28,372 nt of DNA from Smithellaceae bacterium (GTDB lineage Bacteria > Desulfobacterota > Syntrophia > Syntrophales > Smithellaceae), in contig DAOQVG010000001.1 of assembly GCA_035341435.1 (NCBI GenBank), positions 1 through 28,372 on the forward strand, written 5' to 3'. The notes under the pieces are model-generated. The model saw nothing but the letters and a program-made list of their open reading frames with translations. It was not told the origin of the DNA and did not search any database. Both the position numbers and the translations under genes were made by a program. Positions 20,690 through 26,987 of this stretch are shown in pieces. The stretch's first letter is position 1, and the number at the start of each line of letters is the position of its first letter.

Positions 20690-20737
20690 AACCGACTTTC
20701 TGTTTGCTGCCCGGGATAATGTTTGCAAAACTGTGCA

Positions 20738-20787
20738 TGGATACTAATTATCCACGCGGTTACCTTTGTGTGGATACATATTATCCG
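20738..20787. promoter_or_regulatory. Tandem palindromic enhancer boxes TGGATA-N5-TATCC(A/G), candidate sites for the ZraR-like activator
   Basis: TGGATACTAATTATCCA at 20738-20754 and TGGATACATATTATCCG at 20771-20787; 33-bp period; about 85-135 bp upstream of a sigma54 promoter. Confidence 0.7.
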
Positions 20788-20841
20788 TCAATGAAATAAA
20801 ATTCAAATGCTAATTTGGCTTCTCAGGTGATAACCTTATCT

Positions 20842-20854
20842 AATCAGCATGTTA
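20842..20854 (+). promoter_or_regulatory. IHF binding site
   Basis: AATCAG-CATG-TTA matches WATCAR-N4-TTR; between the enhancer boxes and -24. Confidence 0.55.
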
Positions 20855-20871
20855 TCTTGAAATATGATAAA

Positions 20872-20887
20872 TGGCACATCCCTTGCT
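20872..20887 (+). promoter_or_regulatory. sigma54 -24/-12 promoter of the zraP-like gene
   Basis: TGGCAC-ATCCC-TTGCT with exact spacing. Confidence 0.85.
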
Positions 20888-20938
20888 CTATGTAACGTCG
20901 AATTGCTTCACAATAAAAACCTGACAAGGAGGTTCAAT

Positions 20939-21424: not shown

Positions 21425-21433
21425 ATTAACTTT

Positions 21434-21557
21434 GACGGCCTCGTAAAAAGGCCGGATGCTGCGTTGCGCTTCATCATTCGTCACTGCGGCGCACGCTAAG
21501 TGCGCCTCATTCCTTATGATTTGCGCGCCTTGCCTGCGGCCTTTTTACGAGGCCGTC
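21434..21557. mobile_element. 124-bp MITE-like element with 21-bp perfect terminal inverted repeats
   Basis: GACGGCCTCGTAAAAAGGCCG (21434-21454) and its exact reverse complement (21537-21557); internal hairpin GGCGCAC-N5-GTGCGCC; no ORF. Confidence 0.6.
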
Positions 21558-21622
21558 TGAAAATTGTTATTTTGCAACTTTTTACAAATTCATCAACTTT
21601 CTCCTCCCTCCCCCCCTTTTTT

Positions 21623-21655
21623 AAGGAGGGAACGCCCGACGTTCCCTCCTTTTTT
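21623..21655 (+). terminator. Rho-independent terminator after the zraP-like gene
   Basis: 12-bp stem AAGGAGGGAACG-CCCGA-CGTTCCCTCCTT running into a T tract. Confidence 0.85.
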
Positions 21656-21675
21656 CATGTCGGCGGAAAAAGCCA

Positions 21676-21705
21676 TTGACAGCAAAAAAGCTTTCCTGTT
21701 ATCTT
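21676..21705 (+). promoter_or_regulatory. Candidate sigma70 promoter of the rfaH-eCIS operon
   Basis: Perfect TTGACA, 18-nt spacer, extended -10 TG-T-TATCTT, in an AT-rich region. Confidence 0.45.
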
Positions 21706-21896
21706 ATTATATATAGAAAAATAAACTTACCGATATACGATTGTTTTATAATCATTAATGACATTAATCAGATAATTTGTGTAGCTTGTAAAGATCCGGC
21801 TGACTTCTATCGCACCAAACTGTCCAGGGCTGAATATACTGTGAAGTATTTTGTAAAAGAGTGCGAGTACTGTAACTTTTTAATGAATATGGCCAA

Positions 21897-21932
21897 AGCT
21901 GTTTACATATGACAGCTAATGGCGGTAGCCTG
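21897..21932 (+). promoter_or_regulatory. ops element (GGCGGTAGCCTG, 21921-21932) preceded by a JUMPstart-like hairpin
   Basis: Exact match to GGCGGTAGnnTG; hairpin AGCTGT-N9-ACAGCT at 21897-21917; 19 nt before an RfaH-like gene. Confidence 0.85.
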
Positions 21933-21951
21933 CAAAAATCCGGCACAAATA

Positions 21952-22449
21952 ATGAAGAACTGGTACTGCATTTACACCAAGCCCAAAATGGAGGAGACGG
22001 TCAGCGGTCAACTGCTGAATCTGCCGGATATCGAAGTGTTTCAACCCAAACTGAAACGCAGCGGCCTCCGCCGCGGCAAGGTGCAGGAAAAGACGGAGCA
22101 CCTCTTCCCCTGCTATCTTTTCTCCCGCTTTACCCCTTCTCGGTACTATCATTTGATCACGTATACGCGGGGCGTCAAACGCATCATCAGCGATCCGTCG
22201 GGGCATCCCTGCGTGGTGGATGATCGAATCATCGACCAGATCCGCTCCCGGCTTACAGACGGATATATTTACATGGATCAGGCTGTTTTCCATCCCGGGG
22301 ACAAGGTAATGATCCAGGAAGGCCCCCTGGCGGGATTTACCGGCATCTTTCAGCAGCTGAAAGCCCGGGACCGCGTCTTAATGCTTCTCAATTTCATCAA
22401 TTATCAGGCTCGAATCGAAGTAGACGGAAAATACATTACGAAAATTTAA
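21952..22449 (+). CDS. rfaH: RfaH-like (NusG paralog) operon-specific transcription antiterminator
   Basis: 165 aa; WYCIYTK, EHLFPCYLF, TRGV, KOW CTD PGDKVMIQEGPLAGFTGIF...LLNFIN align by eye to E. coli RfaH; start could be 21919. Confidence 0.82.
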   Translation: MKNWYCIYTKPKMEETVSGQLLNLPDIEVFQPKLKRSGLRRGKVQEKTEHLFPCYLFSRFTPSRYYHLITYTRGVKRIISDPSGHPCVVDDRIIDQIRSRLTDGYIYMDQAVFHPGDKVMIQEGPLAGFTGIFQQLKARDRVLMLLNFINYQARIEVDGKYITKI

Positions 22450-22485
22450 TAATAATTCCAAAGTTCCTAAGAAAGGAGATTTGTG

Positions 22486-24789
22486 ATGCCAGTTACACCA
22501 ACATATCCCGGAGTTTATATTGAGGAAGTGCCCAGCGGCGTACGCACCATCACCGGTGTGAGTACATCAGTGACCGCTTTTGTGGGCAGCACAAAACGGG
22601 GGCCCATCAACAAGGCCATAAGGATTCTCAGCTACGCGGATTTCGAACGCGCTTTCGGCGGGCTGGATGCCGGCTCCAAATTGAGTTACGCCGTCCGTCA
22701 GTTTTATTTAAACGGCGGCAGCGACGCGTGGATCGTCCGTCTGGCGAAGAATGCCTCCGCCGCTCAAAAGATCCTGACCGCCGGCGGTTCCGCCAACGTG
22801 CTGGAACTGACGGCCCTGGATGAAGGAAGTGCGGGAAACAACATTGAAATCCGTGTGGACTATGCAACCGCCAACCCCGCCAGCACCTTCAATCTTACGC
22901 TTTTTTACGCTCCCGCCGACGCTCCGGCTGATGCGATTACGGAAAAATTTGCAAATCTCTCCATGAACAGCAAAGATTCGTCCTACGTCGTCGATAAAAT
23001 CAATGGTGTTTCCAGGCTGGTTGCAGTCAAAAACATTGCCAGCCTCGCCGGCCTCGGCAAAGGAACAAGCGTCAGCGGCCAACTGGTGGATGAATCCAGC
23101 AATCTGCTGGATGTCGCCCTGCTGCGCGACGACACTCACAATGCGTTGCGGATATCCGTCAACGGTCTGGCTCCCGTATCCGTCGTTCTCGCCCCGGCAG
23201 ATGTAACCGGCGCGACGGCTGCCGACCGTCTGGAAAAGCTGCGCGCGGCTATCGCAACGCGCCTGACTACGGCCGTACCATCCGAGCCGGCCCTCAAAGA
23301 CCTGACCGTCGCTGTCAATGCGGACAAACAAATCGTCATCACCTCCGGTGTGGCGGGAGAAGCTTCCACGGTTCGCGTTCTTCCCGGCGAAAGAAACGAC
23401 ATCTCCGCCCGCTTGAAACTGGGAACATTAAACGGCGGCGTGGAAACCGACGCCGTTGCCGCAATTCGCCCTGCGGAAATCCCTCTGCGGGGAGAATTGA
23501 CCAGTGCTGCTTTTGCCGCCGCGCTGACAGTTCCTTCCGCAGCCAAGACCAGCTTCAAAATCAGCGTGGACGGTTATGGACCGGATACCGTCGTTCTGGA
23601 TGCCGCCGTGGCTTCCGGCGCGACCATCCCCGCCCAGCTGGCCGACATGGCCGGAAGGATTCAGAGCAAAGTCCGCGCGCTTCAACCCGCGATTGCCGGT
23701 TACAAAGGATTCACCTGTGCCAGTACGGCTGACAAGCTGATCCTCTCTTCCGGTACACGCGGCACAGGCTCCTCCGTGGTTGTCGATGCCGCCGCCGCCA
23801 ATGACATCGCTGCAGTTTTAAATCTGCTTTCCGGTACAACATCTGTTTTGCCAACCAACGTTACGCTTGCCGGCGGCAACGAGCAGCCTTACGCGGACGA
23901 AGCCGCCCCTTATGATCTCTTCATCGCCGACCGCTCCAAGCGCAAAGGCATTTATGCCCTGGAGTCGGTTGATATCTTCAATCTTCTTTGCCTTCCCGGC
24001 ATAACTGATCCCGGCATTCTCATGGACGCCGGCTCCTACTGCCAGGAGCGGCGGGCATTCATGATCATTGATGCCCCGGCCAATAAGAAAGAACCATCCG
24101 CAATGTATGATGCCGCCCGCAGCACGGCGCTGCCGAAAACGGACTACGCCGCCGTTTACTACCCGTGGCTGAAAATCGCTGATCCGCTGCAGAACGGCAA
24201 ACAGGTACTGCAGCCGCCCTGCGGCACAATCGCCGGTTTGTATGCACGCACAGACAGCGCGCGCGGCGTCTGGAAAGCTCCGGCGGGAACCGATGCGACA
24301 CTGGCCGGCGTTCAGGCGGTCGACTACACTCTCACCGATCTGGAAAACGGCACCCTGAATCCTCTGGGCGTCAACTGCATCCGCGTTCTGCCTGTTTACG
24401 GAGCCGTAGCCTGGGGTGCACGGACGCTGCGCGGCGCCGATGAAATGGCTTCCGAATGGAAGTACATCCCCATCCGCCGTCTTGCTCTCTACATCGAAGA
24501 AAGCCTCTACCGGGGCACGCAGTGGGTGGTTTTCGAACCCAACGATGAACCGCTCTGGTCGCAGATTCGCCTTAATGTCGGCGCCTTCATGCACAATCTT
24601 TTCCGCCAGGGCGCATTCCAGGGGGTAAGCCCGAAAGAAGCCTATTTCGTCAAGTGCGACAAGGAAACGACGACGCAAAACGACATCAATTCCGGCATCG
24701 TCAACATCGTGGTGGGATTTGCGCCGCTCAAGCCCGCGGAATTCGTCATTATCAAGCTCCAGCAGATGGCTGGACAGATTCAGAGTTAG
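22486..24789 (+). CDS. Contractile tail sheath protein (eCIS), with a large internal insertion
   Basis: TYPGVYIEEVPSG, F(Y)LNGG, AAVYYPW, PPCGTIAGLYARTDSARGVWKAPAG, WGARTL, VVFEPND, GFAPLKPAEFVII; SD AAGGAG. Confidence 0.95.
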   Translation: MPVTPTYPGVYIEEVPSGVRTITGVSTSVTAFVGSTKRGPINKAIRILSYADFERAFGGLDAGSKLSYAVRQFYLNGGSDAWIVRLAKNASAAQKILTAGGSANVLELTALDEGSAGNNIEIRVDYATANPASTFNLTLFYAPADAPADAITEKFANLSMNSKDSSYVVDKINGVSRLVAVKNIASLAGLGKGTSVSGQLVDESSNLLDVALLRDDTHNALRISVNGLAPVSVVLAPADVTGATAADRLEKLRAAIATRLTTAVPSEPALKDLTVAVNADKQIVITSGVAGEASTVRVLPGERNDISARLKLGTLNGGVETDAVAAIRPAEIPLRGELTSAAFAAALTVPSAAKTSFKISVDGYGPDTVVLDAAVASGATIPAQLADMAGRIQSKVRALQPAIAGYKGFTCASTADKLILSSGTRGTGSSVVVDAAAANDIAAVLNLLSGTTSVLPTNVTLAGGNEQPYADEAAPYDLFIADRSKRKGIYALESVDIFNLLCLPGITDPGILMDAGSYCQERRAFMIIDAPANKKEPSAMYDAARSTALPKTDYAAVYYPWLKIADPLQNGKQVLQPPCGTIAGLYARTDSARGVWKAPAGTDATLAGVQAVDYTLTDLENGTLNPLGVNCIRVLPVYGAVAWGARTLRGADEMASEWKYIPIRRLALYIEESLYRGTQWVVFEPNDEPLWSQIRLNVGAFMHNLFRQGAFQGVSPKEAYFVKCDKETTTQNDINSGIVNIVVGFAPLKPAEFVIIKLQQMAGQIQS

Positions 24790-24801: not shown

Positions 24802-25326
24802 ATGGCTAAATTTACCGTTAATCCGCAGCGTTTCGATCCATATAAGAATTTCAAATTCCGCGTCAAGTGGGACGGCCGTTATGTCGCCGGCGTCAGCAAA
24901 GTGGGCGCTTTAAAGAAAACAACGGAAGTCGTGGAACATCGAGAGGGCGGTGATCCCAGTTCGTCGAGAAAGTCGCCGGGCCGGACGAAATACGAGGCCA
25001 TCACGCTGGAACGGGGAGTTACCCACGACAAGGATTTTGAACAGTGGGCCAACAAGGTCTGGAATTTCGGTTCCGGTCTGGGCGCAGAAGTGTCGTTGAA
25101 GGATTTCCGCAAGGACATCATTGTGGAAGTATACAATGAAGCCGGACAGCTGGCTATCGCCTACAAGGTTTACCGCTGTTGGGTATCGGAGTTTCAGGCT
25201 CTGCCGGAGCTTGACGCCAACGCCAACGCCGTGGCCATTCAGACGATCAAACTGGAAAACGAAGGCTGGGAGCGCGATTACAGCATCAGCGAGCCCGCCG
25301 AACCGACCTTTACCGAACCGGAATAA
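24802..25326 (+). CDS. Tail tube protein (T4 gp19-like, eCIS)
   Basis: RFDPYKNFKFRV, HREGG, PGRTKYEAITLERGVT, YKVYRCWVSE, IKLENEGW; SD AGGAGG. Confidence 0.93.
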   Translation: MAKFTVNPQRFDPYKNFKFRVKWDGRYVAGVSKVGALKKTTEVVEHREGGDPSSSRKSPGRTKYEAITLERGVTHDKDFEQWANKVWNFGSGLGAEVSLKDFRKDIIVEVYNEAGQLAIAYKVYRCWVSEFQALPELDANANAVAIQTIKLENEGWERDYSISEPAEPTFTEPE

Positions 25327-25329
25327 AAG

Positions 25330-26064
25330 ATGAATCAACTTTCAGCCGCCAGACTGCTGGAGGTTTGGGAACAGGGGTTGTCGGCGACGCCGGTTGAACG
25401 CGCCCTGCTGCTTTTGAGTGCCAACCATGAAGGAGAATCGTGGGATGCGCTGTCCAAACTGAGCATCGGTAAACGCGACGTCCGGCTGTTGCAACTGCGC
25501 GCAGAAACATTCGGCTCTTCCCTGCAGGCGGTTTGCGATTGTCCAAAGTGCGGCGAAACCGTTGAAATGTCTTTCGAGGTCAATGATATTCTTGTCGACA
25601 TGCCGGAAGCGGAGGATGGATTGTTAAGTCTGTCAACAGGAAACTATAATGTTCACTTCCGTCTGCCCGACAGCCGCGACCTTGCAGCGGCGGTTAGTGC
25701 GGGGGACAGATCTCTTGCCGCCCGGCGGCTGCTCCACCGGTGCATCATTGAGGCGCGTCGGGACGATAAGATCATCCCTTCTGATGCACTGTCGCCCAAT
25801 GTATTGGATGCCGTGGCCCAGCGTATCGCCGCGATTGACGCCCAGTCGAATATTGAGTTCGAAATGACCTGCCCCGCCTGCAGTTCCACGTGGGTTTCTC
25901 CCTTTGACATCGGCGCTTTCTTCTGGATGGAAATTTCCGCCTGGGCAAAACGCGTGCTGCGCGACGTCCATACACTGGCCTGCACTTATGGATGGAGCGA
26001 AGAAGAAATACTGGCCCTCAGTCCGGCAAGACGGCAGGCCTACCTGGAGATGGTATCCGGATGA
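25330..26064 (+). CDS. Conserved eCIS accessory protein with two CxxC motifs (often annotated as baseplate or assembly-chaperone-like)
   Basis: CPKCG and CPACS; C-terminal DVHTLACTYGWSEEEILALSPARRQAYLEMV; position right after the tube gene. Confidence 0.7.
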   Translation: MNQLSAARLLEVWEQGLSATPVERALLLLSANHEGESWDALSKLSIGKRDVRLLQLRAETFGSSLQAVCDCPKCGETVEMSFEVNDILVDMPEAEDGLLSLSTGNYNVHFRLPDSRDLAAAVSAGDRSLAARRLLHRCIIEARRDDKIIPSDALSPNVLDAVAQRIAAIDAQSNIEFEMTCPACSSTWVSPFDIGAFFWMEISAWAKRVLRDVHTLACTYGWSEEEILALSPARRQAYLEMVSG

Positions 26065-26987
26065 ATGATTATTTTCAGCATTTGATTGATAATAGCACTG
26101 ATCAGGCTCCGGCCATTCGTCCCCGGTTTTCTTCGGTCTTCGAATTCCCGGATGTTGCCGCCGCTACGGTAAATAATGTTTCGGAAGTTGAAATAATTAA
26201 TCGTCCGGCGGAAAAAACGGAGGGGACGCCGACTGTTCATCCCGGACTTTCCCCGGCAACGGAATTCGCGGATGCACCGGACTCTACTGCAGTTGCTGAT
26301 TTCAGGTCTGAAATAATTCATCACTCGCTGGAAAAAACAGGCATCGATCAGGAAGCAACCACCGCTGCCCCATATAAAGTGTTGTCGGGACAGGAAACAT
26401 CTCCGGAAAAACTTATCCGGGACAAAGCTTCTGAAAAGCATATTAAAGATACCCAAGATGCAACAACATCTTTATACGAAGATACCGTCCGTATATTTCC
26501 CGGCGAGACCGTTGATTCAGTGCACCAGGAAACTGTTATAAATAATGTACGGCCGCAGGCGGCGGCGCCTGATCTTCAGCTGTCAGCTGTTGGTGATGAC
26601 GGTACAAATCAAAAAACGGACACTCTGCCTTCAACCAGGGACGAAGTAGAAAGAATGGCCCAACGAGTTTCTTCCCAGGAAGCCGTGACTGCGGTCTCTA
26701 CATTGGCGCCTTATTCTGAACGATTACATGACTCCCGTGCCGGACTCAAACAGCAGCCAGGAATCCGGCCGCTGACCGCAGCAGAGAACAGACTCCAAAT
26801 GCCGCCAGCCTTCCCTACCCGGGAAGATCGGCCGGAAAGAACAATCAAGGTTACCATCGGACGCATAGAAGTGCGGGCGGTGATGCCGCCGGCGCCTTTA
26901 TCTCAACCACGTACGGTTCCGCAGGAACCGCAGCCGAAAATTTCACTGGAAGACTATCTTAAAAAACAACGGGGAGGCAGCCGATGA
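26061..26987 (+). CDS. eCIS-associated hypothetical protein, low-complexity centre with conserved-looking termini
   Basis: ATGA overlap with the upstream stop and with the downstream start (translational coupling); C-terminal TIKVTIGRIEVRA...ISLEDYL. Confidence 0.72.
   Translation: MNDYFQHLIDNSTDQAPAIRPRFSSVFEFPDVAAATVNNVSEVEIINRPAEKTEGTPTVHPGLSPATEFADAPDSTAVADFRSEIIHHSLEKTGIDQEATTAAPYKVLSGQETSPEKLIRDKASEKHIKDTQDATTSLYEDTVRIFPGETVDSVHQETVINNVRPQAAAPDLQLSAVGDDGTNQKTDTLPSTRDEVERMAQRVSSQEAVTAVSTLAPYSERLHDSRAGLKQQPGIRPLTAAENRLQMPPAFPTREDRPERTIKVTIGRIEVRAVMPPAPLSQPRTVPQEPQPKISLEDYLKKQRGGSR

Follow-up and report, generated by a model that had tools for sequence, protein, structure and literature searches.

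At the head of a contractile injection system (eCIS) operon in a Smithellaceae genome lies a gene for an RfaH-like protein, itself preceded by a perfect ops element. This arrangement raises the question of whether the protein serves the operon as a dedicated elongation factor and, if so, whether its own gene falls under its control. The window (the whole 28,372-nucleotide stretch of DNA that was analyzed) is contig 1 of a MAG that is 71% complete and whose nearest records are Smithella/Smithellaceae MAGs. The features that bear on the question are the following:

21623-21651, plus strand: intrinsic-terminator-like hairpin and T-run (12-bp stem, then TTTTTC), which closes the zraP-like unit and isolates the eCIS leader
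21676-21705, plus strand: sigma-70-like promoter (TTGACA, 18-nt spacer with TG, TATCTT; 10 of 12 hexamer matches)
21726-21896, plus strand: AT-rich 5′ leader (35% GC), covered by RNA-library contigs
21897-21917, plus strand: hairpin with a 7-bp stem and a 7-nt loop, ending exactly 3 nt 5′ of ops (stem score 6.5)
21921-21932, plus strand: ops element GGCGGTAGCCTG on the sense (non-template) strand, separated from the hairpin by the spacer AAT
21933-21951, plus strand: A-rich spacer without Shine-Dalgarno (SD) sequence between ops and the start codon (8-33 nt in orthologues)
21952-22449, plus strand: rfaH-like gene encoding P0001, 165 aa, a specialised NusG paralogue (PF02357, 52.9 bits)
22486-24789, plus strand: eCIS sheath gene (Phage_sheath_1 and Phage_sheath_1C; SD AAGGAG at 22473-22478)
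24802-25326, plus strand: eCIS tube gene (Phage_T4_gp19, E = 1.5e-46)
25330-26064, plus strand: gene for a T4_baseplate-family protein (PF12322, E = 1.9e-15)
26984-28297, plus strand: gene for a Pvc16_N (DUF4255) cap-like protein; the operon extends past the window end

The first-pass annotation had placed a hairpin and a perfect ops 19 nt 5′ of ATG 21952, and both are present at precisely these positions. Reading of the sequence from 21600 to 22700 pairs the stem arms AGCTGTT (21897-21903) and GACAGCT (21911-21917). With its 3-nt spacer the hairpin lies directly upstream of ops, as in JUMPstart-type leaders, and 14 nt separate the hairpin end from ops position 11. The 12-nt ops consensus, GGCGGTAGnnTG, is matched on the sense strand of the 5′ leader, and RNA contigs cover the site from 21726 on. 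The pattern GGCGGTAGNNTG has one exact occurrence in the window, against 0.04 expected and at least one in 4 of 100 shuffles. Genome-wide, the 8-mer ops core is found at 48 sites in the MAG, compared with about 56 expected at its size, which is chance level; counts of the core and of the 12-mer are at or below those of a reversed-pattern control in the MAG itself, in 60 genomes of the family and in 400 genomes of the phylum. The significance of the element thus rests on its position and conservation, not on enrichment. The Rfam JUMPstart model (RF01707, 35-bit threshold) gives no match at the site even at E ≤ 10, and passes on the E. coli control; a wider Rfam search of the leader and 14 related loci returned no relevant family. 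The global structure of the leader is not significant either (fold z-score -0.65).

Inspection by eye revealed a degenerate copy of the ops region at 21769-21800, identical to 21913-21944 at 24 of 32 positions and with the GGCG core changed to TTGT. A second, intact GGCGGTAG core occurs 55 nt upstream of the main ops at locus L099, whose protein is 56% identical. Tandem ops-like sites therefore recur in these leaders.

Conservation was assessed in seven orthologous loci, whose proteins are 87, 85, 77, 69, 62, 56 and 55% identical to P0001. The 12-mer is invariant in all of them and is followed, after 8-33 nt, by an ATG that lacks an SD; in each of them a hairpin ends 3 nt upstream of ops, the rest of the leader having diverged. 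Across these seven loci the stem is paired in 91.8% of cells (16-57% in slid controls), and three stem pairs show compensatory double changes. Five of the seven lead into eCIS genes, as does the window, and six of the eight loci with ops before the regulator gene lead a contractile injection system; at locus L010, sheath and tube genes follow after a 78-nt gap. The ops is thus a genuine conserved element tied to the RfaH-like protein family, recurring beside homologous genes and invariant in orthologues, which supports the initial reading of the site as ops. The hairpin probably acts at the RNA level as an aid to polymerase pausing.

Genome G414 departs from this picture in its downstream gene: an 863-aa secreted-type protein with Glucodextran_B and CarboxypepD_reg domains is encoded in place of the sheath (contig G414:C5, loci L101/L056). 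The public call of the G414 regulator (P0013, 173 aa) begins at an ATG overlapping ops and is probably 8 codons too long.

The conservation data also speak to the nature of the motif, which might be a sigma-54 promoter (TGGC...TGC overlaps ops), a repressor operator or a chance match. We consider this extremely improbable. The string TGGCGGTAGCCTGC has a superficial likeness to a -24/-12 element, and sigma-54 activators are encoded upstream in the window as well as at L099 and L103; however, the spacing is GG-N9-GC rather than GG-N10-GC, the T is missing in orthologues L009 and L103, and the GC in several. In addition, RNA contigs begin about 195 nt upstream of the motif, and the true sigma-54 consensus of the window, at 20872, belongs to the zraP-like gene. 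Wrong spacing and poor conservation led us to reject the sigma-54 promoter, and a chance match is argued against by the low expectation in shuffles (0.04) and by the fact that the motif travels with RfaH-like genes across phyla.

The genes upstream (a histidine kinase and a sigma-54 response regulator, both on the minus strand, and an LTXXQ gene) look like a separate ZraSR/ZraP-type unit, unrelated to the eCIS. The sigma-54 consensus that serves the zraP-like gene is perfect (TGGCAC-N5-TTGC, 20872-20888) and lies 8 nt inside the mechanically called start (ATG 20864) of this LTXXQ/Metal_resist gene, which means that translation must actually begin further 3′. The interval separating the zraP-like gene from the eCIS promoter contains, at 21431-21560, a palindromic repeat (about 125 nt, terminal inverted repeats of 21 nt) that folds at -73 kcal/mol. 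It yields 74 blastn alignments (full and partial copies) on about 64 contigs of the MAG, and it appears in RNA libraries at high depth and with many different flanks. This repeat looks like a MITE- or REP-like element.

As to the start of the regulator gene, all homologues open with M-x-N-W-Y; an in-frame ATG at 21919 was ruled out, being absent from the orthologues. These two observations identify ATG 21952 as the real start. The first-pass annotation had described this ATG as devoid of SD, with strong SDs on sheath and tube. Anti-SD duplex energies agree: -1.7 kcal/mol at ATG 21952, -8.7 kcal/mol for the sheath gene and -10.2 for the tube gene, the Pvc16 gene being likewise strong (-11.0). 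Since the SD is also weak in about 8 of the 24 mechanically called ORFs of the window, i.e., about a third, its absence at the rfaH-like gene is notable mainly because it is conserved.

The distance from the likely transcript start to the rfaH-like gene is about 225-240 nt; the sigma-70-like promoter sequence is also present in loci L007 and L008. The locus was found in four RNA-library runs from four separate studies, as assembled contigs, from which neither the strand nor the level of expression nor the start of the transcript can be proven. Two independent runs each contain a contig that matches the window exactly and starts at 21726 (21726-22428 and 21726-22120), and RNA-library contigs cover the eCIS genes throughout. 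The junction between the regulator gene and the sheath gene is bridged only by a contig of a close relative (22315-22618). Coverage of the upstream stretch 20701-20901 was zero in all four runs, which argues against plain DNA carry-over.

The gap between the rfaH-like stop codon and the sheath gene measures 36 nt, and no terminator was found between these two genes. Together with the junction-bridging contig from the close relative, this places the rfaH-like gene downstream of ops in the same transcription unit as the eCIS genes, in agreement with the initial claim. The order of elements (promoter-like site, ops, ATG, then eCIS genes) is that of the PrfaH-type layout discussed below. In relative G425 (85% identical, 571-kb contig), the co-directional cluster spans about 30 kb and adds an AAA ATPase, eCIS_core, a Phage_base_V spike, gp25, two Baseplate_J proteins and large accessory proteins. 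The window genes and this remainder of the cluster from G425 make up an Afp/PVC-like eCIS gene set; capsid and terminase domains were absent from the ORFs scanned. At 768 aa the sheath is unusually long for an eCIS: its Pfam domains account for the C-terminal 280 residues only, and the N-terminal stretch of about 490 residues has no assignment.

Homologues at E ≤ 1e-20 occur in 52 genomes of a 400-genome phylum sample. The more distant ones show another layout. In at least 11 fetched loci from Thermodesulfobacteriota and Aquificota (including an Aquificota MAG), whose proteins are 36-50% identical, ops follows the regulator gene: GGCGGTAGC(C/A)(T/C)(G/A) sits 50-570 nt 3′ of it in 11 such loci. 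Coordinates suggest five further cases. Behind ops in these loci come polysaccharide genes, which encode an epimerase/ManC, a sugar transferase, a polysaccharide deacetylase or an ABC-2 transporter. The hairpins are unrelated in sequence, and 12 of 18 sites combine a stem score of at least 5 with a 3-nt spacer, versus 3.5% of positions drawn at random from the genome. A maximum-likelihood tree unites the eight ops-before proteins in a single clade (support 84/49 for all eight, 97/87 for seven), nested within a 98/98 clade that contains ops-after proteins. This nesting is explained by a single relocation of ops, from behind the gene to its front. From the genomic association, with ops beside homologous genes in about 25 loci, P0001 is predicted to be recruited at ops and to act in antitermination.

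In ops-after loci such as L023 and L041, the gene that comes first behind ops is often without SD, the ATG at L023 lying 14 nt after ops. These starts parallel the SD-less start of the eCIS-linked regulator.

Classification of P0001 itself points to the RfaH family. In the NCBIfam ranking, TIGR01955 RfaH comes out on top (105.3 bits), followed by UpxY (80.8), LoaP (58.8) and NusG (39.3); the score is under the RfaH equivalog cut-off (144.5 bits), yet RfaH is the best-scoring family. By phmmer, residues 1-157 align to residues 1-154 of E. coli RfaH (E = 2e-16), the top PDB match. The protein thus aligns to RfaH over its full length, with an NGN domain and a KOW-type C-terminal domain, and Foldseek finds RfaH and NusG structures. 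At positions 145-147, P0001 reads FIN and E. coli RfaH LIN, against the Rho-binding IFG of the genome's own NusG; the NusG Rho-binding loop is lost.

Residues of RfaH that contact ops DNA are K10, R16, H20, T68, T72 and R73 (PMC11880322). Alignment to E. coli RfaH (from NC_000913) shows that P0001 keeps K10 and the T72-R73-G74 (TRG) motif, K10, T72 and R73 being nearly invariant in the family, and that R16 is replaced by T and H20 by Q. The retention of K10 and the TRG motif and these two replacements had been noted from the window alone and hold up. Further replacements affect R23, Q24, H65 and T68 (T68 to L). The residues responsible for RfaH autoinhibition, E48, I93, F130 and R138 (PMC7593976), are all retained. 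An AlphaFold2 model (66-sequence alignment, pLDDT 87) has a normal NGN domain and a mixed C-terminal domain (strands 118-120 and 130-132, helix 138-152), which fits neither an alpha hairpin nor a beta barrel cleanly.

One could imagine from this that the factor is constitutively active, with a monomorphic beta C-terminal domain, and acts by proximity, ops and the hairpin providing a polymerase pause and nothing else. The loss of alpha1-helix contact residues would fit, as would a C-terminal domain without a predicted full alpha hairpin, and cis-encoded monomorphic RfaH homologues have been reported (PMC13015549). Against this, the autoinhibition set E48, I93, F130 and R138 is kept along with K10, T72 and R73, and the invariance of ops (12 of 12 positions among orthologues, 9-10 across phyla) exceeds what a pause signal alone would need. 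We therefore regard a constitutively active factor as improbable.

The first-pass annotation had asked whether a separate rfaH exists in the genome. Three NusG-family genes are present in the MAG: the true nusG (in the context secE-nusG-rplK-rplA), a UpxY-like paralogue (C253) and P0001. The C253 paralogue (L002:1291-1806, minus strand; 171 aa, 111 bits) is above the UpxY cut-off. It stands alone beside 2-oxoacid:ferredoxin oxidoreductase genes, and matches of similar weak score and length recur in most genomes of the family. A second RfaH is absent from four near-complete relatives, which hold only NusG, the UpxY-like paralogue and the P0001 orthologue; absence was scored in these relatives, the MAG being 71% complete and another factor there possible. 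With no second RfaH-like gene in the four relatives, the regulator is necessarily inside its own regulon.

The distribution of ops sites in the family leads in the same direction. Only 4 of 60 other genomes of the family have the orthologue, and each of the four near-complete relatives has the exact 12-mer at a single place, in front of this gene. The remaining occurrences in the family fall within long open frames, have no hairpin and are no commoner than the reversed control. Inspection of 30 ten-mer-core sites placed all the others in long open frames except one GGCGGTAGCCGG site (L095). In the MAG (G000), an identical 12-mer is found at C177:434-445 (L005), about 45 nt before an operon of polysaccharide type encoding a Gfo/Idh/MocA oxidoreductase and a hexapeptide acetyltransferase. 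Its upstream hairpin is imperfect, and the tetranucleotide profile of the contig falls in the lowest 1% of similar-sized MAG contigs. C177 is either an acquired island carrying a second target or a mis-binned contig.

Taken together, these findings make it likely that P0001 is an operon-specific RfaH-type elongation factor encoded by the first gene of the eCIS operon it serves. The interpretation as a dedicated antiterminator that includes itself among its targets is well supported; loading at ops, antitermination and any feedback are the predicted parts of it. In the mechanism that we propose, transcription would start at the sigma-70-like promoter near 21676-21705. Some 200 nt on, RNA polymerase would transcribe the hairpin and pause at ops, where the autoinhibited factor would load through the non-template-strand ops, probably aided by the nascent hairpin. 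The modified polymerase would then resist pausing and termination over the operon of about 30 kb, and may couple to ribosomes.

The positive feedback loop suggested earlier would follow from the layout: with ops 19 nt before the factor's own SD-less ATG, its gene lies inside its own regulon, which would amount to a built-in positive loop. How much this loop contributes is a separate matter. The rfaH-like gene lies close to the promoter (about 225-240 nt from the likely transcript start), so little gain in its own transcription is to be expected from antitermination, and translation from the A-rich leader, which lacks an SD, might just be low and constitutive. It is possible, if somewhat doubtful, that there is no meaningful feedback. 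The SD-less A-rich start would then supply the factor constitutively and in small amounts, and ops would serve the distal eCIS genes only, its place in front of the gene being incidental to the capture of the module. Besides the small gain in processivity expected this close to the likely transcript start, weak SDs are common in the window, and in the wider family ops comes after the regulator gene, whose expression thus has no need of it. Yet the tight spacing of ops and ATG (8-33 nt) and the absence of SD are kept in all eight ops-before loci, down to 55% identity, and RBS-less reporters placed after ops are translated through E. coli RfaH (PMC13015549).

The layout of a dedicated, self-included antiterminator has a bolder extension, in which the SD-less start is efficient only when the factor on the polymerase brings the ribosome, making an all-or-none switch, and in which the related hairpin-ops pair is an ancient two-part pause-and-load module. 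We consider the two together unlikely. If they were true, the refolded KOW domain would bring the ribosome by binding S10, and the factor would catalyze its own synthesis together with that of the particle; the all-or-none switch would limit costly eCIS production to a subpopulation, the bistable expression that had been suggested earlier. The pause-and-load module would be common to Proteobacteria, Thermodesulfobacteriota and Aquificota and be read without the E. coli alpha1 residues, and ops recognition would be older than currently proposed.

Several known systems resemble the one described here. The closest in layout is PrfaH of IncX3 plasmids: its gene shares a transcript with virB, and an ops-like site occupies positions -42 to -25 relative to the PrfaH start codon (PMC11880322). 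In both cases an RfaH homologue is encoded by the leading gene, co-transcribed with a long target operon, and the loading site is found downstream of the promoter and upstream of the homologue's own ATG. PrfaH has an ops-like sequence that has diverged, while the present locus retains the canonical GGCGGTAG core with C9, T11 and G12; the target of PrfaH is the virB T4SS of Enterobacteriaceae, as opposed to an eCIS in Thermodesulfobacteriota. In the Foldseek search with P0001, the PrfaH structure (9ik0) ranks well below E. coli RfaH.

Among injection systems, Photorhabdus PVCs have GGCGGTAGNNT in their leaders, and Afp of Serratia entomophila has an ops with a tightly linked distant RfaH homologue, AnfA1, which is its activator (PMC6748792). 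The PVCs are suggested there to rely on chromosomal RfaH in trans, and an rfaH knock-out failed (PMC6748792). The present locus shares with Afp and the PVCs, which are gammaproteobacterial systems, an eCIS operon with GGCGGTAGNNT in its leader; here ops is immediately followed by the gene for the regulator, the sole RfaH-like one.

Comparison with E. coli RfaH shows the same 12-nt ops consensus, retention of K10, T72, R73, E48, I93, F130 and R138, and targets that are long operons of horizontally acquired type. In E. coli waaQ and rfb the hairpin ends 1 nt before ops (12 nt before position 11) as compared to 3 nt (14 nt) here, and neither stem nor loop is related in sequence to those of E. coli. 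Unlike E. coli RfaH, P0001 would have one target, in cis, and the two proteins differ in their alpha1 contact residues. UpxY of Bacteroides and TaA of Myxococcus are NusG paralogues encoded in the operons they activate (PMC7593976). P0001 is likewise operon-embedded, but the recruitment signals of UpxY and TaA are not ops, and P0001 scores below the UpxY cut-off (80.8 versus 100). According to a 2026 preprint, RfaH homologues encoded in cis are associated with a monomorphic beta state that lacks the residues for ops binding (PMC13015549); P0001 differs in keeping the autoinhibition set and a perfect ops.

The layout therefore already has experimental precedents in enterobacterial plasmids and insect pathogens, and PrfaH, AnfA1/Afp and UpxY reduce its novelty. 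What the present analysis adds is the phylogenetic reach of ops and its hairpin, the changed contact residues and the documented relocation of ops. RfaH is reportedly limited mostly to Proteobacteria, according to one published survey. With the loci described here, the range of the RfaH/ops system and of the hairpin upstream of ops comes to include Thermodesulfobacteriota and Aquificota; the DNA signal is identical there while part of the known protein-DNA contact surface is replaced. Contractile injection systems are under development as programmable protein-delivery devices, and a compact, portable cassette of leader and regulator driving a 30-kb operon may be of practical use. As for the biology of these particles, the layout offers a simple and testable model for heterogeneous eCIS expression, a phenomenon observed in the PVCs of Photorhabdus that still lacks an explanation.
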